From Phenylobacterium sp. (lineage in GTDB: Bacteria > Pseudomonadota > Alphaproteobacteria > Caulobacterales > Caulobacteraceae): a DNA stretch of 64,000 bases. Of the stretch, positions 7,500-22,965 are shown piece by piece; position 1 is the stretch's first letter; each line of letters begins with the position of its first letter. Position numbers and translations under genes: made by a program. The stretch lies in NCBI RefSeq assembly GCF_004297125.1, contig NZ_SCVD01000011.1:1286-65285 (forward strand), written 5' to 3'. The notes beneath the pieces were generated by a model. The model did no database searches. It was not told the DNA's origin and saw only the letters and a list, made by a program, of their open reading frames with translations.

Positions 7500-7515
7500 C
7501 CGGCCCGACCAGCGA

Positions 7516-7546
7516 CCCGTTCCCGGCTTCACTTGCCGGGAGCGGG
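7516..7546 (+). terminator. Stem-loop between convergent TonB receptor and persulfide dioxygenase genes
   Basis: CCCGTTCCCGGC-ttcactt-GCCGGGAGCGGG; no U-tract. Confidence 0.45.
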
Positions 7547-7693
7547 CGCTGCACTCGGACATCGGCCCTGCTGCCTCGGCTCGCCATCAGCGCGGAGCGA
7601 CGCAAGGGAGGGGTAGAGCGTTGGCGCGGCCTGGACCGTGAAGCAGGATAGGCGGGGCCCGACGGCGATAGCGAGGATTGTTCGTGGCGCCCG

Positions 7694-8638
7694 TCAGACG
7701 GCGTTGATGGGAATCTTCAGGTAGCGGACGCCGTTGTCCTCCGGCTCCGGGAGGCGCCCGGCGCGCATGTTGACCTGCACGGAGGGTAGGATGAGCCGCG
7801 GCATATCGAGCGTACGGTCCCGGGCCTCGCGCAGGGCCACGAACTCGACCTCCCCGACTCCCGCATGCACATGGATGTTGGTCCGCCGTTCGTCGCCGAT
7901 GGTCGTTTCCCACGCGAAGGTGTCGCGACCAGGCGCCTTGTAGTCGTGACACAGGAAGACGCGCGTCGCGTCCGGCAGGGTCAGGAGGCGCTGGATCGAG
8001 CGAAAGAGGGTGGCCGCGTCGCCGCCAGGGAAATCGCATCGTGCGGTCCCATAGTCGGGCATGAACAGGGTGTCGCCGACGAAGGCGGCGTCGCCGATGA
8101 CATAGGCCATGCAGGCCGGCGTGTGGCCGGGGACGCGCAGGGCTATGGCCTGCAGCCCGCCGACCGCGAAACGCTCGCCGTCCTTGAACAGGTGGTCGAA
8201 CTGGCGCCCGTCGCGCGGGAAGTCGGCCCCGGCGTTGAACAGCGCCCCGAAGGTGTCCTGGACCCGTACGATCCTGTCGCCGATCGCGAGCCGACCGCCA
8301 AGGGCGGCCTGCAGGTAGGGCGCGGCCGAGAGGTGATCGGCATGGGCGTGGGTTTCCAGCTGCCAGGCCACTTCCAGCCCTTCCGCCCGGACGTAGGCGA
8401 TCAGGGCGTCGGCCGAGCCGTGTGACGTGCGGCCCGCGGCCGGATCGTAGTCGAGCACGCTGTCGATGATGGCGCAGGCCTTGGAGGCCGGGTCGCGCAC
8501 CACATAGCTGACGGTGAAGGTCGCTTCATCGAAGAAGGCCCGTACATCTGGCTGCTGGGATGGCGCGCTGCGCGCGCCCTCGACGAGGGTGCGCGCCACC
8601 TCTGCGGCCACATCGGCGGAGGCGGTCGGATCACGCAT
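7694..8638 (-). CDS. Persulfide (sulfur) dioxygenase, ETHE1/Blh-like metallo-beta-lactamase fold
   Basis: ETHAHADHLSAA, PGHTPAC, GDTLFMPDYGTARCDFPGG, FLCHDY and C-terminal YLKIPIN motifs. Confidence 0.9.
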   Translation of the reverse strand: MRDPTASADVAAEVARTLVEGARSAPSQQPDVRAFFDEATFTVSYVVRDPASKACAIIDSVLDYDPAAGRTSHGSADALIAYVRAEGLEVAWQLETHAHADHLSAAPYLQAALGGRLAIGDRIVRVQDTFGALFNAGADFPRDGRQFDHLFKDGERFAVGGLQAIALRVPGHTPACMAYVIGDAAFVGDTLFMPDYGTARCDFPGGDAATLFRSIQRLLTLPDATRVFLCHDYKAPGRDTFAWETTIGDERRTNIHVHAGVGEVEFVALREARDRTLDMPRLILPSVQVNMRAGRLPEPEDNGVRYLKIPINAV

Positions 8639-8678
8639 CGTGGAAACTCATCGGTTGCATCGCCTTGTGGAAATATAT

Positions 8679-8694
8679 ATGCGAATATATGCAG
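8679..8694. promoter_or_regulatory. Candidate ArsR (SqrR/BigR-type) operator 1
   Basis: ATGCGAATATATGCAG in the AT-rich gap between divergent dioxygenase and tauE genes; same pattern at 12722 and 21140. Confidence 0.55.
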
Positions 8695-8722
8695 ATACAA
8701 GCTCGATCGGTGATCGCCCACC

Positions 8723-9496
8723 ATGTCCGTGTTCATGATCGTCTCGGCCCTGGCGAGCGGCGCCCTGGTCGGCGCCCTCCTTGGGCTGTTCGGCGGTGGC
8801 GGATCGGTGCTCGCGACGCCCCTGCTGCTCTACGTCGTGGGGATCCGGGATCCGCACGTGGCGATCGGCACCTCGGCCGCCGCGGTGGCGGTCAATGCGG
8901 CGATCAGCCTGATGGGTCACGCGCGGGGCGGGCGGGTGAAGTGGCCCTGCGCGACCGTCTTCGCCGGTGCGGGCCTGATCGGCTCCTTCGCGGGCTCCGG
9001 CTTGGCGAAAGCCGTCGAGGGCCAGCGACTGCTGTTGTTCTTCGCGGTCGCCATGGCGGCCATCGCGCTCTCCATGCTTCGTCGCCCGAAGTCGGCTGGC
9101 GATCCCGATGTCCACATCACCCTGCCGCTGATGATGAAGCTCGCGCCGCTGGGCGTCCTGACCGGGCTGGCGGCGGGCTTCTTCGGGATCGGAGGCGGGT
9201 TCCTGATCGTCCCGGGCCTGATGGCGGCCACCGGCATGACCCTGGCCAACGCGGCGGCCTCCTCCCTGCTGTCGGTGTCGGTGTTTGGCGCCGCGACCTC
9301 GCTGAACTACGCCCTGACCGGCCAAGTGAACTGGCCGGTGGCGGCCCTCTTCATCCTGGGCGGCCTCGGCGGGGGAGCGCTCGGCGTGCGCGCGGCCGGC
9401 CTGCTGGCCGGGCGCGTCGTGCTGGCGCGACGCCTGTTCGCCGGGCTGGTCCTGCTGGTCGCCGCTTATGTCGCCTGGCGGGCCGTGGGCTCATAG
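8723..9496 (+). CDS. Sulfite exporter TauE/SafE family protein
   Basis: 257 aa hydrophobic; repeated GLFGGGGSVL / GFFGIGGGFLIVP motifs. Confidence 0.9.
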   Translation: MSVFMIVSALASGALVGALLGLFGGGGSVLATPLLLYVVGIRDPHVAIGTSAAAVAVNAAISLMGHARGGRVKWPCATVFAGAGLIGSFAGSGLAKAVEGQRLLLFFAVAMAAIALSMLRRPKSAGDPDVHITLPLMMKLAPLGVLTGLAAGFFGIGGGFLIVPGLMAATGMTLANAAASSLLSVSVFGAATSLNYALTGQVNWPVAALFILGGLGGGALGVRAAGLLAGRVVLARRLFAGLVLLVAAYVAWRAVGS

Positions 9497-11086
9497 CCGG
9501 CCGGAGACGTCCAGGATGGTCGTACACAGCGCCAGCGGCGCGGGGCGGTGGCTGACGATCACCACGCCCTGGCCGGTGCGGAGCAGACGCCGGTCCAGGG
9601 CCGCCACCAGCGCGGCCTCGGTGCGGGGGTCAAGGCCCTCGGTCGGCTCGTCCAGGAGGAGCCAGGGCGCATCCCGCAGATAGGTGCGGGCGAGCGACAG
9701 TCGCCGCCGCTCGCCGCCGGACAGCACCTCGCCCCCGTCGCCGATCCACGTCGCCAGGCCATGGGAAAGGCGCCGCACGCGGGCGTCCAGCTGCGCGTCG
9801 GCCAAGGCGTCCCAGAGGGCGGCGTCATCCGCCGCCGGCGCGGCCAGGCGAAGGTTTTCCGCCACCGTGCCGGTGACCAGGCGCGCGTCCTGCGGTGCAT
9901 AGGCGAACAGGGACCGCGCCCAGCCGAGCGGTGCGCTCTCGAGGGGGGTCGCTGCGATCGAGATCCGAACGGCGGGCGCAGCGCGAAGGCCGACCAGCGC
10001 TTCGAGCGTGCGGGTCTTCCCGCAGCCGGAAGGACCGGCGAGGCCAAGCCTGGCGCCGGGCTCGAGCCGCCGGCCGTCGATCTCCAGGGCGGCGTCCGAC
10101 GGCGGGTCCGTCTCGTCCGGGCCCGGGTCGACCAGCACCGCATCCAGCCGGGTCACCGCCTCGCGATAGGCCCCGCGCTGTTGCGCCGCCCGCAGCAGGC
10201 CGGCGACGCCCTCCGTCCCGGCGAGCGCGGCGAGCACCGCCAATGCGGCCAGCGGCAGGGGCGCCGCCGAGACCAGGAGCGCCACCGCGACGAGCGTCGC
10301 CGCGCCCAGGCCCGCCTGGAGGAGGTTGAGTACGGCTTCAGCGTCGCTGCGCTTCAGGGTCGCCCTGCCGAGCGCGGTGTCGTGGGCCATGAGCGCTTCG
10401 ATGGCCCGTGGGGTCAGGTCGAAGCTCCGCAGCTCCGGGGCGGCGGCGAGATAGGCGCCCAAGCCATCCTTCAGGCGGCCCGCGGCGCGAAGCTGGTCGC
10501 GGCCGGCGTCGGCGGTGAGGCGTGCGGCGAGCCGGCGGCCGGCCAGGATCTGCGCCGCCAGGCCCAGCAGGAACGCGAGCACGCCCCAGGGCGAGGCCAG
10601 GGCGATGACGGCGCCCGCCGCGCCCGCCCCGGCGGCTGCGGCCCAGGGCGCCGAGCGCCGCACGAACTCCGTCTCCAGGACATTGACGTCCTGCACCAGA
10701 CGGGCGGCCGCCTCGCCGGACGAAAGCGCCAGTGAGATCGTCGGAGGAGCCGCCGCAAGCCCCGCGAACAGGGCCGGGCGCAGGGCCGCCAGGGCCTGGA
10801 AGGCGGCCCGGTGGCTGAACAGCCGCTCGCCGTAGCGTCCGGCGGTGCGCACGATCGCCAGGCCGCGCAGTCCGGCGCTCGGCAGCAGGTAGTTGAATGC
10901 CCAGACGGCGGCTGGGCCGGCCGCGCCCGCCAGCGCGGCGCCGGCGAGGAACCAACCCGAGAGCCCCAGCAGCAGGGTCGTGGCCGCGGCGGTCGCCGCG
11001 CCGCAGGCGGCGGCGATCCAGAGGTCGCCGCGGCGCCGCCGGACCTGACCTGCCAGGAAATCGCCGATCGGGGAGGGGGCGCTCAT
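9491..11086 (-). CDS. cydC: Thiol reductant ABC exporter subunit CydC
   Basis: LLGLSGWF...RTAGRYGERLFSH; Walker A GPSGCGKT, LSGGERRR, LLLDEPT; next to cydD. Confidence 0.88.
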   Translation of the reverse strand: MSAPSPIGDFLAGQVRRRRGDLWIAAACGAATAAATTLLLGLSGWFLAGAALAGAAGPAAVWAFNYLLPSAGLRGLAIVRTAGRYGERLFSHRAAFQALAALRPALFAGLAAAPPTISLALSSGEAAARLVQDVNVLETEFVRRSAPWAAAAGAGAAGAVIALASPWGVLAFLLGLAAQILAGRRLAARLTADAGRDQLRAAGRLKDGLGAYLAAAPELRSFDLTPRAIEALMAHDTALGRATLKRSDAEAVLNLLQAGLGAATLVAVALLVSAAPLPLAALAVLAALAGTEGVAGLLRAAQQRGAYREAVTRLDAVLVDPGPDETDPPSDAALEIDGRRLEPGARLGLAGPSGCGKTRTLEALVGLRAAPAVRISIAATPLESAPLGWARSLFAYAPQDARLVTGTVAENLRLAAPAADDAALWDALADAQLDARVRRLSHGLATWIGDGGEVLSGGERRRLSLARTYLRDAPWLLLDEPTEGLDPRTEAALVAALDRRLLRTGQGVVIVSHRPAPLALCTTILDVSGRL

Positions 11087-12711
11087 GGCAGTCTCACCAC
11101 ATGGTCGGCGGCGGCGGCGAGGGCCTCGGAATGGGTGGCGACGATCACCGTGCGGCCGTGGGCGGCCTGGCGGATGATGGCGATGATTTCACCCTCGGCC
11201 ACAGGGTCGAGATCCGCGGTCGGCTCGTCGAGCAGGAGCAGCGGCGCGGGCTTGAGGAGGGCCCGCGCGAGGGCGAGGCGGCGGCGCTCGCCGCCCGAAA
11301 GCCCCGACCCGCGCTCGTCCAGGCGAAGGTCCGCGCCGGCCTCGCGCCGGGCCAGCGCCGGCCCGAGCCCCACCAGGTCGGCCATCGCCAGCGCCGCCTC
11401 GGGTGACACTCCGGGCGCGGCGGCCATGAGGTTGTCGATCAGCGAGCCCGGCAGGAAGGCTGGCGCCTGGCCCGCCCAGGCGGACAGGCTGGCGAACCCG
11501 CCGGTGTCGGCGAGGCGCAGGCCGCCGACCTCCACGGATCCGGTTTCCAGGGGGGTCAGGCCGAGGATTGCGGCCAGCACTGACGACTTTCCCGATCCGG
11601 TCGGCCCGACGATGGCGGTGACCCGTCCGGCGGGCGCTGTGGCGTCCAGCGGGCCGACGACGAGATCGCCGAAGCGCAGGCTGAGGTTGCGAAGCCGGAC
11701 GTCCGGCGCGGCGTCCGCGGGCAGCGCCAAGGCCAGCGCGGCTGGGGGTGGTGGGATGGCGAGCATGGGTCGCAGGCGCTCGGCGGCGGCTTCGCCGAGC
11801 TGCTTCTCGTGATAGGCGCCGGCCAGCCTCCGCATCGGCGCGTAGAACTCCGGCGCCAGGGCCAGGGCGAAGAAGGCGTGCCGGAAGTCCAGGGTCTCCG
11901 GGACCTTGAACGGCAGCAGCCCCAGCAGCGAGAAGCCGCAGTAGACGGCGACCAGCGCGACCGCCAGAGCGGCGAAGAACTCCAGCCCGGCCGTCGAGAT
12001 GAAGGCGATCCGCAGCACGCCCAGCGTCCGCCGGCTGACCTCTTCCGCCGCTTGGGCGACGCGGGCTGTCTCCTGCCCCTGCGCCTGGAACGCCAGAACG
12101 ACAGGCAGCGCCCGGACCCGGTCGACGAAATGGCCGGAGAGCTGCGCCAGGGCCTCGAACTGGCGGGTGGCCGCCGCCGCGGCCGCGCCGCCGGCTAGCG
12201 CCATGATCGCCGCGAACGGGACCAGGGTGGCCAGCAGGATGGCGGCGCTCACCGGACTGGCCAGGGCCACGGCGCCGGCGATCAGCAGCGGGCCGAGCCG
12301 GGCCTCCAGCGCGGCGGGCTGGAACTGGGTGAAGTAGCCGTCAACCGCGTCGATCTCGTCGACGACGGTCGCGGTCGCCTCGCCCAGGGACGCCCCATCG
12401 CCGCGGCGGCGGCCAAGGACCGCACCCAGGGCCTCGCGCCTCAGCCCCGCCTTGACCCTCAACGCATGGCGCGCGGCCAGGCGGGCGATCGCCCAGGACG
12501 CCGTCGCGCGCACGGCCAGGGCCGCGCCGAGGCCCACGAGTCCGGGCAGGGCGGCGCGCCCGGTCAGCACCCAGGTCAGGCAGAAGGCGAAGGCCGCTGC
12601 GCCGGCGGCGTTGATCGAGGTCAAGGCGAGAAGGGGACCAGTGGGCGCATGAGCCGCCCGTCCACGGAGCGCAAGGAACCTCCTGTTGGCGGCGGTGTCG
12701 GCGGCGCTCAT
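11083..12711 (-). CDS. cydD: Thiol reductant ABC exporter subunit CydD
   Basis: EFFAALAVALVAVYCG...LAPEFYAPMRRLAGAYH; GPTGSGKS, LSGGERRR; divergent from cydA. Confidence 0.88.
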   Translation of the reverse strand: MSAADTAANRRFLALRGRAAHAPTGPLLALTSINAAGAAAFAFCLTWVLTGRAALPGLVGLGAALAVRATASWAIARLAARHALRVKAGLRREALGAVLGRRRGDGASLGEATATVVDEIDAVDGYFTQFQPAALEARLGPLLIAGAVALASPVSAAILLATLVPFAAIMALAGGAAAAAATRQFEALAQLSGHFVDRVRALPVVLAFQAQGQETARVAQAAEEVSRRTLGVLRIAFISTAGLEFFAALAVALVAVYCGFSLLGLLPFKVPETLDFRHAFFALALAPEFYAPMRRLAGAYHEKQLGEAAAERLRPMLAIPPPPAALALALPADAAPDVRLRNLSLRFGDLVVGPLDATAPAGRVTAIVGPTGSGKSSVLAAILGLTPLETGSVEVGGLRLADTGGFASLSAWAGQAPAFLPGSLIDNLMAAAPGVSPEAALAMADLVGLGPALARREAGADLRLDERGSGLSGGERRRLALARALLKPAPLLLLDEPTADLDPVAEGEIIAIIRQAAHGRTVIVATHSEALAAAADHVVRLP

Positions 12712-12721
12712 CGGATCATAA

Positions 12722-12737
12722 ATGCATAATTGCGCAT
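12722..12737. promoter_or_regulatory. Candidate ArsR operator 2
   Basis: ATGCATAATTGCGCAT, perfect ATGC-N8-GCAT arms, in the ~96-bp cydD/cydA divergent gap. Confidence 0.55.
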
Positions 12738-12807
12738 CTTAGAAGATACAGATATTGCGGCGCCGTCGTCGCGGGTGTTCACTGCGGTGAAACTAGGAAC
12801 CTCGGTC

Positions 12808-14376
12808 ATGACCATGGATGTCGTCGAACTCTCCAGGCTGCAGTTCGCCCTGACGGCCATGTACCACTTTCTCTTCGTGCCGCTGACGTTGGGCCTGTCG
12901 TTCCTGCTGGTCATCATGGAGAGCATCTATGTGATGACCGGCCGCCCGATCTGGCGGACCATCACCCGCTTCTGGGCGACCATCTTCGGCATCAACTTCG
13001 TCCTGGGGGTCGCGACCGGCCTTACCATGGAGTTCGAATTCGGGACCAACTGGTCCTACTACTCGCACTACGTGGGCGACATCTTCGGCGCGCCTCTGGC
13101 CATCGAGGGCCTGATGGCCTTCTTCCTGGAAGCCACCTTCGTTGGCCTGATGTTCTTCGGCTGGGAAAAGCTCTCCCGACAGGCGCACCTCTTCGTCACT
13201 TTCATGGTCGCGCTCGGGTCGAACCTGTCGGCTCTGTGGATACTGATCGCGAACGGCTGGATGCAGAATCCGGTCGGCGCGGCGTTCAATCCCGACACCA
13301 TGCGCATGGAGGTGACCAGCTTCCGCGACGTGCTGTTCAACCCGGTGGCCCAGGCGAAGTTCGTTCATACGGTGAGCGCGGGGTACGTCACGGCCTCCGT
13401 CTTCGTGCTGGGGATCTCGGCGATCATGCTGCTTGGCGGCAAGTGGCCACGGGTGGCCAAGCGGTCCTTCGCCGTGGCCGCGTCCTTCGGCCTGGCCGCA
13501 TCCCTCTCGGTCGTCGTGCTGGGCGACGAGAGCGGCTACGCCCTCACCGACAACCAGAAAATGAAGCTCGCGGCGCTGGAAGCCATGTGGGAGACCGAGC
13601 CCGCCCCCGCCGGACTGGCGGCCTTCGGCATCCCTAGCCTGGCCGACCGCAAGACCTACGCCGAGGTGAAGATCCCCTATGTGCTCGGGCTGATCGCCAC
13701 CCGCAGCATCGACAAGCCGGTCTCCGGCATCTTCGAACTGGTGGCCGTCGCCGAGACCCGGGTCGAGAACGGGATCAAGGCCTATGACGCGCTGGAGCGC
13801 CTCAAGGCCTCGCCCCAGGACCTGGTGGCGCGCGCCGACTTCGAGCTCAGCCGCAAGGACCTGGGCTACGGCCTGCTGTTGAAGCGCTATGTCGCCGACC
13901 CGCGCACCGCCGACCGGGCGACCATCCAGAAGGCGGCCTGGGACACCGTGCCGAACGTGCCGGTGATGTTCTGGGTGTTCCGGATCATGGCCGGAATCGG
14001 TTTCCTGCAGATCGCAGTCTTCGCAGCGGCCTTCGTCCTGGTGACGCTCCGCCGGTGCGAGACCAAGTGGATCCTCTGGACCGCGGTCGCCATCATGCCG
14101 TTGCCGTGGATCGCGGCGGAAGCTGGCTGGGTCCTGGCCGAACTGGGGCGTCAGCCCTGGGCGGTGGAGGGCGTCCTGCCGACCTTCCTCGGAGTCTCCA
14201 GCCTGACCGTCGGCCAGCTCTGGACCACGATCATCGGCTTCACCTTGCTCTATGGGGCGCTGGCCGTCGTCGAGGTCGGCCTCATCGTTCGGACCGTCAA
14301 GCGCGGACCCTACGCTCATCACGACCAGCCCGACGGCGGCGCGGCGGCATCGATCCGTCTCGCCCCGGCCGAATAG
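12808..14376 (+). CDS. cydA: Cytochrome bd ubiquinol oxidase subunit I (long Q-loop type)
   Basis: AMYHFLFVPLTLG, AKFVHTV, GDESGY..QKMKLAALEAMW, FWVFRIM, ELGRQPW; start set at ATG after AGGAAC. Confidence 0.96.
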   Translation: MTMDVVELSRLQFALTAMYHFLFVPLTLGLSFLLVIMESIYVMTGRPIWRTITRFWATIFGINFVLGVATGLTMEFEFGTNWSYYSHYVGDIFGAPLAIEGLMAFFLEATFVGLMFFGWEKLSRQAHLFVTFMVALGSNLSALWILIANGWMQNPVGAAFNPDTMRMEVTSFRDVLFNPVAQAKFVHTVSAGYVTASVFVLGISAIMLLGGKWPRVAKRSFAVAASFGLAASLSVVVLGDESGYALTDNQKMKLAALEAMWETEPAPAGLAAFGIPSLADRKTYAEVKIPYVLGLIATRSIDKPVSGIFELVAVAETRVENGIKAYDALERLKASPQDLVARADFELSRKDLGYGLLLKRYVADPRTADRATIQKAAWDTVPNVPVMFWVFRIMAGIGFLQIAVFAAAFVLVTLRRCETKWILWTAVAIMPLPWIAAEAGWVLAELGRQPWAVEGVLPTFLGVSSLTVGQLWTTIIGFTLLYGALAVVEVGLIVRTVKRGPYAHHDQPDGGAAASIRLAPAE

Positions 14377-14388
14377 GGACTCAGGACG

Positions 14389-15537
14389 ATGCACATTCCC
14401 CTCGACTACGAGACACTGCGGGTCATCTGGTGGGGCCTGATGGGCGTGCTGCTGATCGGCTTCGCGCTCACCGACGGCTTCGACCTGGGGGTCGCCGCCC
14501 TGCTGCCCTTCGTCGCCCGCAACGACGGCGAGCGGCGGATGGTGATCAACACCATCGGCGCCACCTGGGAAGGCAACCAGGTGTGGTTCATCCTGGGCGG
14601 CGGGGCGATCTTTGCGGCCTGGCCGTTCGTCTACGCCGTCAGCTTCTCGGGCTTCTACCTGGCGATGTTCGCGGTGCTCGCGGCCCTCATCCTGCGGCCG
14701 GTCGGCTTCAAGTACCGCTCAAAGCGGCCCTCGAAGACGTGGCGGACGGCGTGGGACTGGGCCCTGTTCGTCGGCGGCTTCGTCCCGGCCCTGGTGTTCG
14801 GGGTGGCGGTGGGCAACGTCCTGCAGGGGATTCCCTTCCGGCTCGACGGCGATCTGCGCGCCACCTACACCGGAACCTTCCTCGGCCTGTTCACCCCCTT
14901 CACGCTGGTCTGCGGGCTGCTGTCGGTGGCCATGCTGGTGACCCATGGCGCGGCCTGGCTGACCATCAAGGCTGAACACGGGGCAGTGCGCGACCGGGCG
15001 CGGGCCATTGGCTCCGTCGCCGCGCTCGCGGCCATCGTCCTCTTCGCAGCCGGGTATGCGTTCGTGGCGTTCGGCGGTCTCGGCTTCCGCCTGGACGGCG
15101 CCGTCGATCCAGCCGGCCCGTCCAACCCGCTGCGCGCGGCCGCCGTGGCCGCCCCCGGGGGATGGCTCACCAACTTCGCCACCTATCCGTGGATGTGGAT
15201 CGCGCCCGTCCTCGGCTTCGCGGGCGCGGCCCTGGCCCTGGTGGGCATCCGCGCGGGCCGCGAAGTCCCGGCCTTCGCCGGCTCTTCCCTGTCGGCGCTA
15301 GGGATCATCTCCACCGTGGGGCTCGCGATGTTCCCCTTCATCCTGCCCAGCAGCATCGACCCGAGGTCGAGCCTGACGGTCTGGAACGCGTCGTCCAGCC
15401 ACATGACCCTGTTCGTCATGCTGGTGGTCACCGTGGTCTTCCTGCCGATCGTGCTGGCCTACACCGCCTGGGCTTACAAGGTGATGTTCGGCCGCTCCTC
15501 GGTCGGCGACCTGAACACCAACCCCGATCTCTACTGA
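14389..15537 (+). CDS. cydB: Cytochrome bd oxidase subunit II
   Basis: TDGFDLGV, WEGNQVWFILGGGAIFAAWP, SLTVWNASSS. Confidence 0.96.
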   Translation: MHIPLDYETLRVIWWGLMGVLLIGFALTDGFDLGVAALLPFVARNDGERRMVINTIGATWEGNQVWFILGGGAIFAAWPFVYAVSFSGFYLAMFAVLAALILRPVGFKYRSKRPSKTWRTAWDWALFVGGFVPALVFGVAVGNVLQGIPFRLDGDLRATYTGTFLGLFTPFTLVCGLLSVAMLVTHGAAWLTIKAEHGAVRDRARAIGSVAALAAIVLFAAGYAFVAFGGLGFRLDGAVDPAGPSNPLRAAAVAAPGGWLTNFATYPWMWIAPVLGFAGAALALVGIRAGREVPAFAGSSLSALGIISTVGLAMFPFILPSSIDPRSSLTVWNASSSHMTLFVMLVVTVVFLPIVLAYTAWAYKVMFGRSSVGDLNTNPDLY

Positions 15538-15549
15538 GGAGTCCCGAGC

Positions 15550-15669
15550 ATGTGGTATTTCACCTGGGTGCTTGGCCTGGGCCTGGCGGTCGCCTTCGGC
15601 ATCCTCAACGGCATGTGGCACGAATTCCACCTCGTCGATTCCGGCGACGACGGTGAGGACGACGCGTAA
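15550..15669 (+). CDS. cydX: Cytochrome bd oxidase small subunit
   Basis: Manual translation MWYFTWVLGLGLAVAFGILNGMWHEFHLVDSGDDGEDDA (39 aa) directly after cydB, GAGGAG RBS. Confidence 0.93.
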   Translation: MWYFTWVLGLGLAVAFGILNGMWHEFHLVDSGDDGEDDA

Positions 15670-15723
15670 GCCGAGCGCGCGGCTCTCCCTGCGTCTCGCG
15701 GCCTGAATGGCGACCGGCGAGGT

Positions 15724-16092
15724 TCAAGCCTGGCGGCGGCCGGCGCGGCCTTCGGTCCGGACCTCGCTGGCGCCATAGATGTCGCACAGGGTGTCGAGCA
15801 CCCGCATCGCCGCCGGGTCGTCCAGCCGATAGTAGATGGTCTGCGCCTCCCGCCGGGTGCCGACCAGGCCCTCGGCCCGCATCTTGGCCAGATGCTGCGA
15901 CGTGGTCGATTGGGCCATCTTGGCGTGGTCCGCGAGGGCCTTCACCGATGCCTCTCCCTCGACAAGCCGGCACAGCAGGAGCAGGCGCGGCTCGCTGGCC
16001 AACAGCTTCAACAGGCGCGCGGCGGCCTGAGCGCTGTCCCCCAGCTCGGAGAGTTCGCTGGGCGAGGGGCGGGCGACGAGTGCGGACGTCAT
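15724..16092 (-). CDS. ArsR/SmtB-family regulator, BigR/SqrR-like (copy 2)
   Basis: LKLLASEPRLLLLC...SQHLAKMRAEGLV..RREAQTIYY...LDTLC; Cys in helix 2 and near the C terminus. Start inferred. Confidence 0.88.
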   Translation of the reverse strand: MTSALVARPSPSELSELGDSAQAAARLLKLLASEPRLLLLCRLVEGEASVKALADHAKMAQSTTSQHLAKMRAEGLVGTRREAQTIYYRLDDPAAMRVLDTLCDIYGASEVRTEGRAGRRQA

Positions 16093-16166
16093 CTGCTTAA
16101 TGTAGAAGATGCGCATCAACGATCAAGGCGATGGTGGCCCGCTCGCTCGCCGACGATGCGATGGCG

Positions 16167-19100
16167 CTACGCCGGCTTGCCTCCGCGCTCAACGGCGGTT
16201 GTCGGCCCAGGTGGGCGGCTATCGTCCCTCAGGACGACATAGATCGCCGGGATCACCAGCACGGTCAGCAGGGTGGACGAGGCCAGACCGAACAGCAGCG
16301 AGATCGCCAGCCCCTGGAAGATCGGGTCGGTAAGGATCACCGCCGCGCCGATCATGGCGGCCGCGGCCGTCAGCACGATGGGCTTGAAGCGGATTGCGCC
16401 GGCCTCCAGCAGGACCTCGCGCAAGGGCCGCTCGCCGGTCTGGCTGTGGCGGATGAAGTCCACCAGCAGGATCGAGTTGCGCACGATGATCCCGGCCAGG
16501 GCGATGAAGCCGATCATCGAGGTGGCGGTGAAGGGCGCCCGGAACAGGATGTGGCCGACGACGATGCCCACAAGGGTCAGCGGGATCGGGGTCAGGATGA
16601 CCAGCGGCAGGCGGAAGCTTTTGAACTGGGCGACCACCAGGACGTAGATGCCGAGGATCGCCACGCCGAACGCCGCGCCCATGTCGCGGAAGGTCACCCA
16701 GGTGATCTCCCACTCGCCGTCCCAGAGCACGGTGGGCCGGCTCTCGTCCGTGGGCTGGCCGTGCAGGCGGATGTCGGGCTTGGGGACGCCTGTCCAATCG
16801 CCCTCCTTCAGCGCCTTGTCGACCGCGAGCATGCCGTAGATCGGCGCCTCGTAGGCGCCGGCGAGCTCGCCCATCACCATGTCCAGGTCGCGTCCGTCGC
16901 GGCGGAAGATGTGGGTCGAGCCGGCTTCGGTCGACGCCGTGGCGACTTCGCCAAGTGACACCAGCCGTCCCCCGGCGGGGCCCTGCGACACCGCCACCGG
17001 CATGGCGGCGAGGCCTTCGCCCCAGCTGCGCGCCGATTGCGGCAGGCGCACGGAGATCTCAAGGGGATCGCGACCCTCGCCGCGGTGGGCGTAGCCGACG
17101 ACCTGGCCGCCGAGGGCCGCGGCGATGGAGTCGTAGACGTCCCGGTCGCCGACCTTCAGCGCCTCAAGCCGGTCGCGGTCGGGGACCAGCCGCAGGCCTG
17201 GCCGGGGCTGGCCGTAGCTGTCGTCGATGTCGACGATGTAGGGCACGGAATGGAATGCGGCCTTCACGCGCGTGGCCACCGCGCGCCGCGTCGCCGCGTC
17301 GGGACCGTAGACCTCCGCCAGCAGGGTCGCCATCACCGGTGGTCCGGGCGGCGCCTCGACCACCTTGATCGCCGCGCCCGCGGGCAGGGCGACCTTGGCG
17401 AGCCTTCGGCGCAGGTCGAGGGCGATGGCGTGGCTGTTGCGGCGGCGCTCGCCCTTCTCGGCCAGGGTGACGGAGAGGTCGCCCATCTCCGGCTTGTTGC
17501 GAAGATAGTAGTGGCGCACGAGGCCGTTGAAATTGAACGGGGAGGCCGTCCCGGCATAGGCGTCCACGGCGACGACTTCCGGCAGGGCGCGGGCGATCGC
17601 CGCCGCGTCGCCGAGCGCGCGCTGGGTGGCCTCCAGGGACGTCCCTTCAGGCATGTCGACCACCACCTGCAACTCGGACTTGTTGTCGAAGGGCAGCAGT
17701 TTCACCGTCACCGTCTTGGTGGCGAACATGGCGCAGGCCAGAAGCGTCGCGACGCCGACGGCGATGAGGAAGGTCCAGGCCGACCGGCGGGTGGCGATCA
17801 CGCGGCCCGCGACCTTTCGGTAGATCGCCTCGAGCCGGCCTTCGACATGGGATCCGTGTCCGGCCGCCAGCGTCTTGCGCGCGAAGCGCACCATCAGCCA
17901 GGGCGCGATCACCACGGCGACAAAGAACGAGAAGACCATGGCCGCCGAGGCGTTGACCGGAATCGGCGCCATGTAGGGGCCCATCAGGCCCGAGACGAAC
18001 AGCATCGGCAGCAGGGCGGTGACGACAGTGAGCGTGGCCACCACGGTGGGGTTGCCGACCTCGGCCACGGCCTCGACGGCCGCGTCCACGCGGGTTCGCC
18101 CGTCCGCCATCGCCCAGTGGCGGGCGATGTTCTCGATCATGACGATGGCGTCGTCGACCAGGATGCCGATGGAGAAGATCAGGGCGAACAGGCTGACCCG
18201 ATTGATGGTGTAGCCCAGCAGGTTCGAGGCGAAGAGGGTGAGCAGGATGGTGGTCGGGATCACCACGGCGGTGACCGCCGCCTCGCGCCAGCCGATGGCG
18301 AAGCCGATCAGGACGACGATCGACAGGGTGGCGAGCCCGAGGTGGAAGAGCAGCTCGTTGGCCTTCTCGTTCGCTGTGGCGCCATAGTCGCGCGTCACAG
18401 AGACGCTCAGGCTGTCCGGCAGAAGCGAGCCCTTCAGCGCCTCGACCCGGGCCAGGACGGCCTGGGAGACGACGACGGCGTTGGCGCCCTTGCGCTTGGC
18501 GATCGCCAGGCTGACGGCAGGGGCTTCACTCCAGCCCTGGGCGGTTCGGGCATAGCGCCAGGCGCGGGCCTGATCCTCGCGCGGGCCTTCGACCACCTGG
18601 GCGACGTCGCGGACATAGACGCTCTCGCCCTTGGCGGAGGGCAGGGCGAGCAGGCCGATCTCCGTCGCGTTGGCGAGGGTCCGCCCGGCCGTGACGTCGA
18701 CGGCCTGGCCGCCGTTGCGCACCTGACCGGCCGGGAAGGCGCGGTTGGCCTGGCGGATGGTGTCCATGAGGGCTCCCAGCGACACCCCATGCTGGGCGAG
18801 CCTCGCCGGATCGGGCTCGACGCGGATCTCCTGCGGCCGGCCGCCGACGATGAAGGTCAGGCCCACGTCGTCGACCTTGGTCACTTCGTTGCGCAGCTTG
18901 CCGGCCAGTTCGTGGAGCGCCTGGTCGGTCCATTGCCCGGCGGCGCCGGGCTTTGGCGAGAGGGTCAGCACCAGGCTGGGCACGTCGTTGATGCCACGGG
19001 TCTGGATCAGCGGCTCGGGGATGCCCGCCGGAATCCGGTCGTAGTTCGCGCGGACCTTCTCGTGGATGCGCACCGCCGCGGCGTCCGGATCGGTCCCGAC

Positions 19101-19403
19101 GTCGAAACGCGCGGTGACCATAACCTGGTTGTCGTCGGCGAAGGTGTAGACGTGCTCGACGCCCGAGACGCTCTTCACGATCGTCTCCAGGGGTTTGCCG
19201 ACCAGCTCCACGGCGTCCGGCGCCCGCAAGCCGGGTGCGGAGACCATGATGTCGACCATGGGCACGCTGATCTGAGGTTCCTCCTCGCGGGGGATCGACA
19301 TCAGGGCCAGCAGGCCCACGGCGATCGCCGCCAGCAGGAAGAGCGGCGTCAGCGGCGAGCGGATGGTCGCGCGCGTCAGGCGTCCGGAGAGGCCGAGGTT
19401 CAT
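16167..19403 (-). CDS. RND efflux transporter permease subunit
   Basis: 1078 aa; PREEEPQI.VPMVD, GILVDDAIVMIENI, GIIVRNSILLVDF, RFKPIVLT. Confidence 0.95.
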   Translation of the reverse strand: MNLGLSGRLTRATIRSPLTPLFLLAAIAVGLLALMSIPREEEPQISVPMVDIMVSAPGLRAPDAVELVGKPLETIVKSVSGVEHVYTFADDNQVMVTARFDVGTDPDAAAVRIHEKVRANYDRIPAGIPEPLIQTRGINDVPSLVLTLSPKPGAAGQWTDQALHELAGKLRNEVTKVDDVGLTFIVGGRPQEIRVEPDPARLAQHGVSLGALMDTIRQANRAFPAGQVRNGGQAVDVTAGRTLANATEIGLLALPSAKGESVYVRDVAQVVEGPREDQARAWRYARTAQGWSEAPAVSLAIAKRKGANAVVVSQAVLARVEALKGSLLPDSLSVSVTRDYGATANEKANELLFHLGLATLSIVVLIGFAIGWREAAVTAVVIPTTILLTLFASNLLGYTINRVSLFALIFSIGILVDDAIVMIENIARHWAMADGRTRVDAAVEAVAEVGNPTVVATLTVVTALLPMLFVSGLMGPYMAPIPVNASAAMVFSFFVAVVIAPWLMVRFARKTLAAGHGSHVEGRLEAIYRKVAGRVIATRRSAWTFLIAVGVATLLACAMFATKTVTVKLLPFDNKSELQVVVDMPEGTSLEATQRALGDAAAIARALPEVVAVDAYAGTASPFNFNGLVRHYYLRNKPEMGDLSVTLAEKGERRRNSHAIALDLRRRLAKVALPAGAAIKVVEAPPGPPVMATLLAEVYGPDAATRRAVATRVKAAFHSVPYIVDIDDSYGQPRPGLRLVPDRDRLEALKVGDRDVYDSIAAALGGQVVGYAHRGEGRDPLEISVRLPQSARSWGEGLAAMPVAVSQGPAGGRLVSLGEVATASTEAGSTHIFRRDGRDLDMVMGELAGAYEAPIYGMLAVDKALKEGDWTGVPKPDIRLHGQPTDESRPTVLWDGEWEITWVTFRDMGAAFGVAILGIYVLVVAQFKSFRLPLVILTPIPLTLVGIVVGHILFRAPFTATSMIGFIALAGIIVRNSILLVDFIRHSQTGERPLREVLLEAGAIRFKPIVLTAAAAMIGAAVILTDPIFQGLAISLLFGLASSTLLTVLVIPAIYVVLRDDSRPPGPTTAVERGGKPA

Positions 19404-20431
19404 TTGCTCGGCCCGGCCGGGGTGAGGACATCGCCGGCCCGAAGCCCGGACAGTACCTCGATCGTGTCCGGCGTCGGGCCGGCCGTGGTCTGGATCGGGG
19501 TCTCGGACACAGTCCCGCCTTCGCGGACCAGGCGGGCGTAGTCGACGCCGAACCGCGTCACGGCATAGCGGCGTGGGATCACCAGCGCCCGCCGCTCGCC
19601 GACCTTGATCCTCGCACGCACCCGCTGGCCGATCAGGTCCTGCGGCAGATTGGGGGCGGTGACGTCGGCGGTGACCTGGCCGCCGGTCACCGACGGATAG
19701 ACCTGGCTGATCGTTCCCTGGGTCGCGGCGCCCCGAAGGTCGTCGGCGGCGAGGGGGACGACATCGCCGACCCTGAGCGCGCGCGCCTGGCCTTCCGGCA
19801 GCTCGATACGCACCACCATCGGGCCGGCCGTGATCGTGGCGACGGTCTGGCCGGGCATGACCACGGAGCCCACCGGCACGTCGGCCACCAGCACGCGGCC
19901 GGCGGCCGGCGCCAGGATCGCCCCTTGGGCGCCGAGTTCGGCGCTGGCGCCGCGCTGGGCCCGCGCCGCATTGAGATTGGCGTTGGCCGCCTTGGCCTGG
20001 GCCTCGACCTGGTCCAGGCGCGCCTGGGCGTAGACGCCGTGGGAGAACAGGTCGCGCGTACGGGCGAGATCCGCCTGGGCCCGCGCGGCTTCCGCCGCGG
20101 CGGCGGCCACCTGGGCGTCGAAGGCGCCGGTCTGCAGGGTGAGGCGGTCGTCCTTCACCCGGGCGATCACCTGTCCCTGGCGCACCAGATCGCCTTCCTT
20201 GACGGAGAGAGCGACCAGCACGCCGGAGATGCGGGCGCGGGCCTCGGCCATGTCGCGGGTGGTCAGCGTCCCGGGCACAGGTTTCTCGTCGGCGACGGTT
20301 CGCGCTTGCACCGTCAGGCGCCCGGCCATCGGCGCCGTCTGGGCGACCGGGACGCTCGGTTTGGTGTCTCCGCAGGCGGCGACCAGCAAGGCTACGCCCA
20401 GCGCCGCGATGGTATGGAGCCTCAACGCCAT
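19400..20431 (-). CDS. RND periplasmic adaptor (membrane fusion protein)
   Basis: Lipoprotein-like signal LLVAAC; ARISGVLVALSVKEGDLV lipoyl motif, coiled coil, APAAGRV; overlaps RND start. Confidence 0.92.
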   Translation of the reverse strand: MALRLHTIAALGVALLVAACGDTKPSVPVAQTAPMAGRLTVQARTVADEKPVPGTLTTRDMAEARARISGVLVALSVKEGDLVRQGQVIARVKDDRLTLQTGAFDAQVAAAAAEAARAQADLARTRDLFSHGVYAQARLDQVEAQAKAANANLNAARAQRGASAELGAQGAILAPAAGRVLVADVPVGSVVMPGQTVATITAGPMVVRIELPEGQARALRVGDVVPLAADDLRGAATQGTISQVYPSVTGGQVTADVTAPNLPQDLIGQRVRARIKVGERRALVIPRRYAVTRFGVDYARLVREGGTVSETPIQTTAGPTPDTIEVLSGLRAGDVLTPAGPSK

Positions 20432-20466
20432 GGCCTGCCCTCCCGTGCTTGTGATCCCGACCGAGG

Positions 20467-20796
20467 CTAGCCGGTGACCGTCGGCAGGCCGGCGGCCTTC
20501 CAGGCGGCGAGGCCGCCGGCGAGATGCGTCTCGATGGCCTGGTCGGCCCGGCGGCACTGGTCCACCGCCATGGCCGAGCGCTTGCCGCCGGCGCACTGCA
20601 GCACGATCGTCTTGCCGCCCGCCGCGGGGAGCGCGGCGGGGTCGAAGCTCGACAGCGGCACGTTCAGGGCGCCGGCGATCCGGTCGGCGGCGAACTCGGC
20701 GGGCTCGCGCACGTCGATCAGCAGGATTTCCTGGGCGTCGAGCGCGGCCTTCACCTGCTGCGGGGTGAGGTCCTTGGTCTTGGGGGCGCCGGTCAT
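20467..20796 (-). CDS. Single-domain rhodanese (sulfurtransferase)
   Basis: LIDVREPAEF, active loop CAGGKRS, LAGGLAAWK. Confidence 0.92.
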   Translation of the reverse strand: MTGAPKTKDLTPQQVKAALDAQEILLIDVREPAEFAADRIAGALNVPLSSFDPAALPAAGGKTIVLQCAGGKRSAMAVDQCRRADQAIETHLAGGLAAWKAAGLPTVTG

Positions 20797-20808
20797 GTGG
20801 AGGCTCCT

Positions 20809-21129
20809 TTAGGGCTGCGCGCGGTCGGGGACCGCGCAGAAGAGGCGGGACAGGGTCTCGACCAGAGCGCGGGCCTGGCCGCTCTGCAGGCCGTAGTAGA
20901 TGGTCTGGCCGTCACGACGGGCGGCGACCACGCCGTCCCGGCGCAGCAGGCCGAGGTGTTGCGACGCCAGGGTCTCACGCACGCCCAGCATCTGGGCGAG
21001 CGCACCTACCGACTGCTCGCCCTCGATCAGGCTGCAGACGATCATCAGCCGATGCGGGTTCGCCAGCGCCTTGAGCAGGGCGCACGCGTCGTCGGCCGAG
21101 GCTTTCATGGCGCGGACGTCTAATTTCAT
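20809..21129 (-). CDS. ArsR/SmtB-family persulfide-sensing regulator, BigR/SqrR-like (copy 1)
   Basis: LKALANPHRLMIVC...SQHLGLLRRDGVVAARRDGQTIYY...LSRLFC; the MIVC/LFC Cys pair matches SqrR/BigR. Confidence 0.9.
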   Translation of the reverse strand: MKLDVRAMKASADDACALLKALANPHRLMIVCSLIEGEQSVGALAQMLGVRETLASQHLGLLRRDGVVAARRDGQTIYYGLQSGQARALVETLSRLFCAVPDRAQP

Positions 21130-21139
21130 AGTTGCGTAT

Positions 21140-21155
21140 ATGCGTCTATATGAAT
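21140..21155. promoter_or_regulatory. Candidate ArsR operator 3
   Basis: ATGCGTCTATATGAAT, 11-26 bp upstream of the regulator's start, between it and sqr. Confidence 0.6.
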
Positions 21156-21286
21156 ATTTAGTCAATCATCGTGAGGTTCACCGTAGCCGCGCCGATGGCC
21201 CGGGGACCTGATCTGCATCAAGGCCAGCGGGCGAACACGGGCGGATGCTCGCGGTGAGCCGTCCTGGGCCATCGAGGAGACCGACT

Positions 21287-22567
21287 ATGGCCAAGCCGCG
21301 CATTGTGATTCTGGGCGCAGGATTGGGCGGCGCGATCGCCGCCTTCGAGGTCAAGGACGCCGTCGGCGAGAAGGCCGAGGTGAGGGTCGTGTCGCAGGGC
21401 GACACCTTCCACTTCGTCCCGTCAAACCCCTGGGTCGCGGTCCATTGGCGCAAGCGCGGCGCCATCGAAGTCAAGCTGCCGCCGGTGTTCAAGAAGCGCG
21501 GCATCGGCTTCACCGGGGTCGGCGCCAAACACGTCTCGCCGGCTCAGAACCAGCTGGAGCTGAACGACGGGACAGTCGTCGACTACGACTACCTGATCAT
21601 CGCCACCGGCCCGGACCTGGCCTTCGACGAGATCGCAGGGCTGGGGCCGCACGGGGGGTTCACCCAGTCGGTCTGCCACGTAGACCATGCCGAGGCCGCC
21701 GCCGCCGCCTTCGACCGATTTGTCGAGAACCCGGGCCCGATCGTCGTCGGCGCGGTCCAGGGCGCCTCGTGTTTCGGCCCGGCCTACGAGTTCGCGATGA
21801 TCCTCGACACCGAACTGAAGCGCCGCAAGATCCGCGACAAGGTCCCGATGACCTTCGTCACCTCGGAACCCTACGTGGGCCACCTGGGCCTCGACGGGGT
21901 CGGCGACACCAAGGGACTGCTCGAAAGCGAGATGCGCGAGCGCCACATCAAGTGGATCACCAACGCCAAGGTGACCGCCGTCGAGGCGGGCCTGATGCAT
22001 GTCGACGAGATCTCCGACGACGGCTCGGTCAAGCAGACCCACGACCTGCCCTTCGCCTATTCGATGATGCTGCCGGCTTTCCGCGGCGTCGCCGCGGTGC
22101 GCGGCGTCGAAGGGCTGACCAACCCGCGCGGCTTCGTCGTCATCGACAAGCACCAGCGCAATCCGACCTTCCCCAATGTCTTCGGCCTCGGCGTCTGCGT
22201 GGCCATCGCGCCGACCGGCAAGACCCCGGTGCCGGTGGGCGTGCCGAAGACCGGCTTCATGATCGAGAGCATGGTCACCGCCATCGCCCACAATATCGCC
22301 CAGCTCGTCGACGGCCAGCCCACAACCCACGAAGCCACCTGGAACGCCTTCTGCCTGGCCGACTTCGGCGACGGCGGCGTGGCCTTCGTCGCCCAGCCGC
22401 AGATCCCGCCGCGCAACGTCAACTGGTCGGCCAGCGGCAAGTGGGTCCACCTCGCGAAGGTGGCCTTCGAGAAATACTTCCTGGCCAAGATCCGGCGGGG
22501 CGAGAGCGAGCCCTTCTACGAGAAGCTGGCCCTGGAGGTGATGGGGCTGCGGAAGATCAAGGGCTGA
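21287..22567 (+). CDS. sqr: Sulfide:quinone oxidoreductase, type I (SqrA-like)
   Basis: GAGLGG FAD fold; TQSVCHVDHA, ASCFGPAYE, PKTGFMIESM, CLADFGDGG (three conserved Cys). Confidence 0.92.
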   Translation: MAKPRIVILGAGLGGAIAAFEVKDAVGEKAEVRVVSQGDTFHFVPSNPWVAVHWRKRGAIEVKLPPVFKKRGIGFTGVGAKHVSPAQNQLELNDGTVVDYDYLIIATGPDLAFDEIAGLGPHGGFTQSVCHVDHAEAAAAAFDRFVENPGPIVVGAVQGASCFGPAYEFAMILDTELKRRKIRDKVPMTFVTSEPYVGHLGLDGVGDTKGLLESEMRERHIKWITNAKVTAVEAGLMHVDEISDDGSVKQTHDLPFAYSMMLPAFRGVAAVRGVEGLTNPRGFVVIDKHQRNPTFPNVFGLGVCVAIAPTGKTPVPVGVPKTGFMIESMVTAIAHNIAQLVDGQPTTHEATWNAFCLADFGDGGVAFVAQPQIPPRNVNWSASGKWVHLAKVAFEKYFLAKIRRGESEPFYEKLALEVMGLRKIKG

Positions 22568-22570
22568 GCC

Positions 22571-22765
22571 ATGCGCCAGTTCGCCTGCCCCGCCTGTGGC
22601 GCGGCCAATCGCACGCCGGCCGGCAAGGACCCGCTGTCGGCGAAATGGAACGGCCGGCTCGTGGCTCGAACGGCGGGCCTGACGAACACCGCTCAGATCG
22701 TCGCCTGGACGCGCCAGGCCCTCGCCCAGGCGTCGTCCGGGGCGGCTTCAGGAGATCAATCATGA
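22571..22765 (+). pseudogene. Thioredoxin-2 (TrxC)-like gene with in-frame internal deletion
   Basis: 64 aa: CPACGAANRTP..DPLSAK joined directly to NGRLVARTAG...QIVAW; second CxxC and the WCxPC site are absent. Confidence 0.7.
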
Positions 22766-22965
22766 CCCTCGACCGTATGGTCTTCGTCTTCGCCGGCTTC
22801 GTGGTCCTGCTCAGCGTCGCCCTCGCGCAGCTCGTGAATCCCTGGTGGATCGCGTTGGCGGTCTTCGCCGGCCTCAATATGATCCAGGCGGCGTTCACCG
22901 GTTTCTGTCCGGCTGCGATGATCTTCAAGAAGCTGGGATTCAAACCCGGGGCCGCCTTCCGGTGA
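22762..22965 (+). CDS. DUF2892 (YgaP-like) membrane protein
   Basis: 67 aa, MTLDRMVFVFAG...QAAFTGFCPAA; AGGAGA RBS. Confidence 0.9.
   Translation: MTLDRMVFVFAGFVVLLSVALAQLVNPWWIALAVFAGLNMIQAAFTGFCPAAMIFKKLGFKPGAAFR

Follow-up and report, generated by a model that had tools for sequence, protein, structure and literature searches.

Sulfide poisons haem-copper oxidases, and bacteria respond by oxidizing it (SQR, PDO, rhodanese, TauE) and by switching to cytochrome bd; the known sensors of the sulfide-oxidation response are SqrR, BigR, CstR, and FisR. We describe here a sulfide-detoxification cluster in a 64,000-nucleotide stretch of Phenylobacterium sp. DNA (contig NZ_SCVD01000011.1; the whole stretch is termed the window, and all positions are those of the window), whose promoters carry copies of a 20-bp palindromic element that is probably the operator of one or more ArsR-family repressors encoded in the cluster itself. 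Among the closest described systems, SqrR of Rhodobacter capsulatus is an ArsR-family sensor that detects persulfide through a dithiol and represses sqr along with further sulfide-responsive genes; its box is ATTC-N8-GAAT, as was correctly stated in an earlier note on this DNA (PMC9774250; bioRxiv 10.1101/2020.03.22.001966). BigR, known from the bigR-blh operon of Xylella and Agrobacterium and from A. baumannii, acts on its own operon and has among its targets a Blh-type dioxygenase and a TauE-like exporter. The Escherichia coli homolog of these proteins, YgaV, is encoded beside the rhodanese gene ygaP and binds a site resembling ATTC-N8-GAAT that lies over its own promoter; a ygaV mutant shows more cydAB reads, the only precedent that we found for control of cytochrome bd by the SqrR/BigR family (PMC9774250). 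In Hyphomicrobium denitrificans, two further related ArsR-type repressors that respond to sulfane sulfur, sHdrR and SoxR, bind to common promoter fragments (PMC12423496). Sulfide is known to induce cydAB (PMC7315123); the mechanism of this cytochrome bd response was still given as unknown in 2022 (PMC9774250). No BigR/SqrR-type regulon is described for the present lineage in the literature searched.

The cluster spans 7.7–22.6 kb of the window (G+C content 69.7%; nearest relatives Phenylobacterium and Caulobacter) and combines sqr, pdo, tauE, a rhodanese gene, and the cydDC/cydAB genes with two arsR paralogs, arsR1 and arsR2 (Table 1). Its three divergent intergenic regions, pdo/tauE, cydD/cydA, and arsR1/sqr, are short (84, 96, and 157 bp, respectively) and hold the three 16-mers singled out in the earlier note, viz., ATGCGAATATATGCAG (8679-8694), ATGCATAATTGCGCAT (12722-12737), and ATGCGTCTATATGAAT (21140-21155), the last of which lies 11–26 bp upstream of the arsR1 ATG at 21129, a start supported by 80 orthologs. 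These 16-mers turn out to be the inner 16 bp of a 20-bp AT-rich imperfect palindrome, ATAT(T/G)C(A/G)-N6-CG(C/T)AT(A/C)T, and all three, along with a weaker look-alike (ATGT-N9-GCAT) that the note had reported before arsR2 and that corresponds to the spacer block ATGCGCATCTTCTACAT at 16116-16100, lie within conserved promoter blocks. A scan of species genomes with ArsR1 yielded 80 loci (L numbers below designate individual related loci), and conservation against diverged flanks holds in 55 arsR1, 24 pdo, 40 arsR2, and 11 cyd promoters. In the 55 Caulobacteraceae arsR1 orthologs the outer ATAT is invariant (55/55) and CGCATAT is kept in 49/55 around a variable middle, with an upstream consensus from 53 unique orthologs of gCTTGACT..ATAT..gaA.a..CGCATATaCGCAACT-ATG; the 24 pdo/tauE promoters follow G.CTTGTAT.T.CAtATATTCGCATATA between unconserved flanks, the element overlapping a −35-like TTGTAT on the pdo side. 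The 40 arsR2 orthologs give cTTGa.c.t..aTgCgtat.TTCTAcatta.gcagATG, and a block TTGCG(C/T)ATCTTAG(C/A)A(T/G)ATA..GAT(A/G)TTGC is kept in the 11 orthologous cyd promoters. In Acidocella, Dongia, and other relatives, where ArsR1 is 55–65% identical, the arsR1 promoter reads TTGNNN-nn-ATAT(T/A)CG-N6-CGTA(T/G)AT-(A/T)CGCAA, with the dyad symmetry retained.

A position weight matrix built solely from 22 arsR1 promoters of these distant lineages (Acidocella, Dongia) ranks the element at 21138-21157 first in the window (25.4 bits) and that at 8677-8696 second (23.3 bits), with lower matches in the cyd promoter (17.1, 12.7, and 10.2 bits) and at arsR2 (ATCTTCTACATTAAGCAGAT, 12.0 bits). The 12 best matches among the 128,000 positions of the window all fall in these four promoters of the island, the best elsewhere reaching 10.3 bits. 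The remaining AT-rich stretches of the window score at most 3 bits, and dinucleotide-shuffled versions of the intergenic regions score as high as the real sequence in 0/5000 cases for arsR1/sqr, 8/5000 for pdo/tauE, and 35/5000 for cyd, which together argue that AT-richness alone does not suffice for the signal. Likewise, across 55 related loci totaling 870 kb (about 20 kb per genome), every match of at least 10 bits lies within 200 bp of an arsR1, tauE/pdo, cydD/A, or arsR2 start, none falling outside island-type promoters, and lowering the threshold to 8 bits adds only four matches elsewhere; the element is thus not a background motif, and the matrix could be used to map the regulon across Caulobacterales genomes. 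Profile-profile comparison of the promoter classes (column-permutation null, 1000 permutations) relates arsR1 to pdo (z=5.1), pdo to cyd (z=6.3), and arsR1 to cyd (z=5.7), each with 0/1000 permutations, while the score between arsR1 and arsR2 (z=5.3) is driven by a common −35 position rather than by the operator. Relative to the −35-like hexamer, the element is shifted by 4 bp between the arsR1 and pdo promoters and is therefore more than a fixed −35/−10 pair.

The form ATAT-TCG-N6-CGA-ATAT of the element contains ATTC-N8-GAAT, which places it in the register of the Rhodobacter SqrR box; correspondingly, the version found here, ATAT-TC(G/A)-N6-CG(N)-ATAT, contains ATTC-N8-G(C/T)AT. The inverted-repeat geometry of 4-bp arms 8 bp apart recurs on the minus strand as ATTC-N8-GCAT (21140-21155), CTGC-N8-GCAT (8679-8694), and ATGC-N8-GCAT (12722-12737), and the R. 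capsulatus sqr operator TGCCTATTCATATTCTCATATGTGC, used in anisotropy assays (bioRxiv 10.1101/2020.03.22.001966), shares TATTCATAT with the minus strand of the arsR1/sqr site, ATATTCATATAGACGCATAT. ArsR1 displays the ArsR/SmtB winged helix-turn-helix fold (PF01022, 33.7 bits against a cut-off of 22) and matches HlyU (82 bits), BigR (78.7 bits), and SqrR (71 bits) in the PDB over its full length. Its alignment with BigR (3pqj) places both sensing cysteines: the segments RLMIVCSL and RLFCAV correspond to RLMLVCTL and TIFCAQ of BigR (C42/C108 in BigR, C41/C107 in SqrR), and both cysteines are kept in all orthologs inspected, Caulobacteraceae and distant alike. ArsR2 is equally near SqrR, its best solved-structure match (77.4 bits), and NolR of Sinorhizobium (77.3 bits), with which it shares a C-terminal ...IYGA motif. 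NolR is not a thiol sensor, whereas ArsR2 keeps the helix-2 cysteine (RLLLLCRL) and usually a second one; the latter (DTLCDIY) lies four residues before the position of SqrR C107 and is missing in the orthologs from L027 and L054. The NolR operator reads (A/T)TTAG-N9-A(T/A).

Given the conserved sites, the lack of background matches, the geometry of the SqrR operator, and the presence of an adjacent BigR-like repressor with both cysteines among sqr, pdo, tauE, and rhodanese genes, the best reading of the cluster is as a predicted BigR/SqrR-type persulfide regulon. We accordingly propose, with reasonable confidence, that the sites are the cores of putative operators for the cluster-encoded BigR/SqrR-family repressor or repressors, placed over the core elements of compact back-to-back promoters. 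Under this proposal, a reduced ArsR1 dimer sitting on its own, probably leaderless, promoter and on that of pdo/tauE would block RNA polymerase, and a persulfide or polysulfide would bridge the two cysteines and cause ArsR1 to leave the DNA, whereupon arsR1-rhodanese-MFP-RND, pdo, tauE, and probably also sqr would be expressed. The weaker composite element at cydDC/cydAB, situated where related cyd operons carry an FNR box, would allow the sulfide signal to switch on the sulfide-resistant cytochrome bd instead of, or besides, low oxygen, with the cyd and arsR2 sites being taken by ArsR1, ArsR2, or both. Such a system would be of the same type as that of SqrR; it differs in the right arm of the site (G(C/T)AT rather than GAAT), in having the regulator divergent from sqr and heading a rhodanese-RND operon, in the two paralogs, and in the extra FNR-like box at sqr. 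From the BigR systems it differs in that Pdo is a Blh-like dioxygenase domain (aligning to positions 137-422 of the Blh model) without the DUF442 sulfurtransferase domain of Blh. In E. coli, cyd is unlinked to ygaV and no YgaV site is reported in its promoter, whereas here cydDC/cydAB lie within the cluster and carry an operator-like block without an FNR box. The sHdrR-SoxR pair offers a model for how ArsR1 and ArsR2 might share or divide sites, although what it controls is thiosulfate oxidation (the sox and shdr genes) and not sqr, pdo, or cyd.

Several points weigh against this interpretation. The literal pattern proposed in the earlier note, ATGC-N8-GMAK, is indeed present in all three promoters, but it is unenriched in the window (8 matches against 7.56 expected); the regular expression by itself therefore carries no weight, its enrichment was dropped as evidence, and the signal resides in the wider 20-bp element. 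Among orthologs the literal pattern is found in 23/24 pdo/tauE promoters but in only 25/55 arsR1 promoters, of which 52/55 retain GCAT on one side while the left half is variable. In the window, the cyd element scores low (10.8 bits against a uniform background; shuffle p of about 0.007–0.02), and its assignment to one register was abandoned, because the scoring register, one of three spaced 8 bp apart, changes from ortholog to ortholog; in most of them the middle one, A(T/A)(T/A)T(G/T)CG(C/T)ATCTTAGCATAT, scores best, so that the register of the 16-mer at 12722-12737 is not the best conserved. ArsR1 reaches 93.9 bits against the NCBIfam BigR model NF040642, below the equivalog cut-off of 155, which makes it a member of the clade rather than a BigR ortholog by the NCBI criterion. 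The conserved blocks overlap the presumed promoter hexamers, and part of their conservation may hence reflect promoter function; moreover, a strict sigma-70 scan called no promoters in the region, so the −35 and −10 assignments come from conservation alone. The collection searched has no RNA-seq runs of this organism, and none of its RNA runs contains more than 9% of the words of the locus, though DNA runs contain it. Finally, sqr has a separate conserved FNR-like box (CTGATCTGCATCAA), one of two matches with at most one mismatch in the window (0.24 expected), for which 53 orthologous arsR1-sqr intergenic regions give the FNR/FixK-like consensus gTGATCc..aTCAA. Centered 72 bp upstream of the sqr ATG and 67 bp away from the operator center, this box suits a separate activator-dependent sqr promoter that the operator would not occlude, and sqr may thus be under oxygen control besides, or in place of, control by ArsR1. 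A back-to-back sqr promoter at the operator itself is also possible, with TTGCGT-N17-TATTTA on the plus strand as its candidate. At the place corresponding to the FNR-like box, the Dongia relatives have TTGATCCTGCGCAA.

The alternative that survives best is a division of labor in which ArsR1 would act on arsR1/sqr and pdo/tauE through the half-site CGCATAT-A and the Caulobacteraceae-specific ArsR2 would act on its own promoter and on cydDC/cydAB through TGCG(C/T)ATCTT, the likeness of the sites stemming from the common ancestry of the repressors; we consider this a serious but tentative possibility. The 10-mer TGCGCATCTT occurs in the window only at 12731-12740 (cyd) and 16106-16115 (arsR2), against 0.11 expected, and hints that ArsR2 may serve these two promoters, though the profile scores fail to separate the alternatives: arsR2 resembles cyd (z=4.1) and not significantly pdo (z=1.7), but the cyd profile is at least as close to those of pdo and arsR1 as given above. 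The existence of a conserved promoter for arsR2 alone and the direct adjacency of cyd to arsR2 in the window and in six relatives (L161, L162, L164-L166, L170) favor such a division, as does the Hyphomicrobium precedent of two related sulfane-sulfur repressors, but most genomes with arsR2 have no cyd in the island, and an ArsR1/SqrR-type box, ATATTCACACATTCTAATAT, is present in Phenylobacterium cyd operons located elsewhere than in the island (L168, L169). The presumed DNA-recognition helices of ArsR1 and ArsR2 also have SQHL in common at aligned positions, which speaks for common rather than divided sites. On the other side stands a third arsR, found between tauE and a diverged pdo (54% identity) in six Caulobacter loci (L025, L039, L041, L044, L050, L051; at about 16.4–17.7 kb, or 10.8 kb in L039): in its intergenic region a perfect palindrome, CTTGCTAAATTAGCAAG, stands between ATATAT and GCATAT and differs from the 20-bp element, which indicates that paralogs within the cluster need not share operators. 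The arsR2 promoter was also considered as a full 20-bp site and rejected as such, since it has only the CG(C/T)ATCT half and a weak ATCT-N12-AGAT register.

The version put forward in the earlier note, that the arsR1 product alone binds one operator per intergenic region and controls all six divergent transcription units, appears unlikely; of that claim the persulfide regulon stands as the best reading, and the single repressor is not supported as stated. Its appeal lies in the same motif family recurring in three short intergenic regions, each with one AT-rich block, and in distant relatives whose sqr, rhodanese-RND, pdo, and tauE genes are served by one arsR, but the second paralog with its own promoter, the FNR-like box that suits a separate sqr promoter, and the weak cyd site with its resemblance to the arsR2 block all count against it. 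We hold as still less probable that the true unit is not a dyad but GCATAT with a 10-bp period, bound on one helix face by several repressor dimers or by another protein. The TATATG(C/A) units with this period noted earlier are present (8676-8682/8686-8692 and 21137-21143/21147-21153), GCATAT units 10 bp apart are both conserved in the pdo promoter, and a comparable spacing is seen in most cyd orthologs (CG(T)ATCT / GCATATA); the self-complementarity of ATAT and TGCA lets many sites be read either way. The direct repeat accordingly suits the pdo and cyd promoters, but in the 55 arsR1 promoters the second repeat is unconserved ('..gaA.a..') while outer ATAT and CGCATAT are kept, the distant lineages retain the dyad ATAT(T/A)CG-N6-CGTATAT, and ArsR-family dimers are two-fold symmetric, with the SqrR box being an inverted repeat. 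That no repressor is shared and the blocks are merely AT-rich core promoter elements (−35, −10, UP-like) made alike by composition in a 70% G+C genome is very improbable, for although the literal pattern is at background frequency, every block abuts a TTGNNN hexamer, and three seemingly leaderless genes need promoter elements exactly there, this is contradicted by the low scores of other AT-rich regions, the absence of strong matches from related sequence that holds many other promoters, the variable position relative to the −35 hexamer, the dyad symmetry, the likeness to tested SqrR operators, and the co-occurrence with arsR across orders.

The cyd promoters bear further on the proposed persulfide regulon. 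An FNR box (TTGAT-N4-ATCAA), as is usual for FNR/FixK-controlled cydAB promoters of alphaproteobacteria, is absent from 12712-12807, the cydD-cydA intergenic region of the window, and present in 34/58 related metagenome cydA promoters, 66–108 (mostly 84–94) bp before the ATG. Matches to the matrix of at least 8 bits occur at about the same distance in 0/34 promoters with the FNR box vs 9/24 without it (Fisher p=1.2 × 10–4), and the cyd promoters of the island belong to the FNR-less group. It is conceivable, though we lean against it, that the cyd locus of Phenylobacterium and relatives moved from FNR/FixK oxygen control to a thiol-based sulfide sensor, the operator replacing the FNR box and the lineage-specific ArsR2, with its displaced cysteine and its own leaderless promoter, taking over the respiratory branch. 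If true, this would supply a direct cis-encoded mechanism for the long-observed, mechanistically unexplained induction of cytochrome bd by sulfide. The broader notion that all FNR-less cyd promoters with ATATTC-type boxes are persulfide-controlled was rejected: several adjoin ArsRs without sensing cysteines, and an ArsR-type box therefore need not mean persulfide control. In five metagenome loci of other taxa with FNR-less cydDC/cydAB (L110, L112, L114, L131, L135), the ArsR gene beside cydC encodes such a cysteine-less protein with a conserved C-terminal tail (...AAMFARVSRV / SAAMFARVEPRV), and the cydA promoters have ATATT-type boxes. Such proteins seem to represent an undescribed ArsR subtype that serves cytochrome bd. 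A second FNR-like box of the window, TTGATCGAGGTCAA (12611-12624, one mismatch), lies about 100 bp inside cydD (codons LTSIN) and 190 bp before cydA; L045 has TTGATCCTTGTCAA at its place and L005 lacks it, and it may be a relic of an ancestral FNR site or a chance match. The cydA leader also has a second conserved block, GGGTGTT(C/G)A.TGCGG (12773-12787, about 25–35 bp before the ATG), which has no Rfam match and recurs in most island-type and some non-island Phenylobacterium cyd loci (L005, L161, L163-L166, L168, L169).

At the starts of arsR1, arsR2, and cydD (21129, 16092, and 12711) there is no Shine-Dalgarno sequence, and the −10-like hexamers (CATATA, TACATT, and TTATGA, respectively), kept in orthologs, end 4–7 nt before the ATG, from which we infer that their mRNAs are leaderless. 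Leaderless mRNAs are common in Caulobacter. An Rfam scan of 7000–23000 gave only a chance miRNA match (E=0.59), the conserved leaders fitting no known RNA element.

Table 1. Genes and predicted regulatory features of the sulfide cluster, in window positions.
Feature	Positions	Strand	Description
pdo	7694..8638	-	Type II persulfide dioxygenase; 391-447 bits to PDB 9g8t, 4efz, 4ysk
Predicted operator, pdo/tauE	8677..8696	-	ATCTGCA-TATATT-CGCATAT; inner 16 bp = 16-mer of this promoter
tauE	8723..9496	+	Sulfite exporter family, PF01925 154 bits; divergent from pdo
cydC	9491-11086	-	TIGR02868; ABC exporter for cytochrome bd assembly
cydD	11083-12711	-	TIGR02857; ABC exporter for cytochrome bd assembly
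Composite operator-like block, cydD/cydA	12720..12755	.	Three overlapping 20-bp registers, 8 bp apart
cyd register 1	12720-12739	+	AAATGCATAATTGCGCATCT; contains the 16-mer of this promoter; 12.7 bits
cyd register 2 (middle)	12728-12747	+	AATTGCGCATCTTAGAAGAT; 10.2 bits
cyd register 3	12736-12755	-	ATATCTGTATCTTCTAAGAT; 17.1 bits
cydA	12808-14376	+	Cytochrome bd oxidase; NF011677 705 bits
cydB	14389-15537	+	Cytochrome bd oxidase; TIGR00203 453 bits
cydX	15550-15669	+	39-aa open reading frame; orthologs carry PF08173 annotation
arsR2	15724..16092	-	Second ArsR paralog, 122 aa
arsR2 promoter	16090..16126	-	TTGATC 16126-16121; spacer block 16116-16100; TACATT 16104-16099; ATG 16092-16090
RND pump	16167-19403	-	Downstream of arsR1, co-oriented
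MFP	19400 to about 20431	-	Downstream of arsR1, co-oriented
Rhodanese	20467-20796	-	Downstream of arsR1, co-oriented
arsR1	20809..21129	-	BigR/SqrR/HlyU-clade winged-helix repressor, 106 aa; heads arsR1-rhodanese-MFP-RND(-arsR2)
Conserved arsR1 promoter block (whole)	21130..21165	-	TTGACT (-35-like, 21165-21160), predicted operator, CGCATATACGCAACT straight into ATG (21129)
Predicted operator, arsR1/sqr	21138..21157	-	ATATTCA-TATAGA-CGCATAT; inner 16 bp = 16-mer of this promoter
FNR/FixK-like box	21208..21221	+	CTGATCTGCATCAA; arsR1-sqr intergenic region
sqr	21287..22567	+	Type I sulfide:quinone oxidoreductase; 494 bits to Acidithiobacillus SQR structure 3sz0; divergent from arsR1

The organization of the cluster is widely kept: arsR1 is linked to sqr, pdo, rhodanese, and tauE genes (sqr|arsR1-rhodanese-..., tauE|pdo) in about 70 loci, with the order arsR1-rhodanese-MFP-RND preserved in about 70 from Caulobacter to Acidocella and the divergence of sqr and arsR1 from Caulobacteraceae through Acidocella and Dongia. 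About 50 Caulobacteraceae show sqr<-|->arsR1-rhodanese-MFP-RND-arsR2 followed by tauE<-|->pdo; arsR2 occurs in about 42 Caulobacteraceae loci and in none of the distant relatives, and only the window and a minority of relatives have cyd between arsR2 and tauE. In five distant relatives (L068, L072-L075) pdo-tauE lies inside the arsR1 or sqr operon itself, which implies that the same control unit predates the split of the operon and suggests that the pdo/tauE promoter and its predicted operator arose at the split of an ancestral arsR1/sqr operon.

As interpreted here, the cluster joins the sulfide-oxidation and cytochrome bd responses under one operator family in a compact, testable system of four short promoters and two small repressors. 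Cultivable carriers are available in Phenylobacterium immobile (L161; cyd/pdo part), P. koreense (L170; cyd beside arsR2), and Caulobacter sp. Root1455 (L021; a version without cyd). The new parts are modest, namely the operator-like block in an FNR-less cyd promoter and the second paralog with a displaced cysteine; otherwise the cluster extends a known regulatory family in an expected way and brings no new principle.

Other features of these loci concern their accessory genes. In the window, sqr is followed by a gene for a TolC-like outer-membrane protein (PF02321, 22845-24227), so that the cluster seems to include a complete tripartite efflux system (RND, MFP, TolC-like), whose substrate is perhaps a sulfur compound. 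The gap between the RND gene and arsR2/cydX holds variable small genes in L161 and L164-L166 (ferritin-like, carboxymuconolactone decarboxylase-like, YgaP-like transmembrane protein, Usp) and a Crp/FNR-family regulator gene in L165 and L166, and appears to be a hot spot for accessory redox genes. In L050, five tandem copies of GGGGGCGCATCT, a unit that contains the half-site GCGCATCT, lie at about 16600–16680, immediately before the third arsR or inside its start region.

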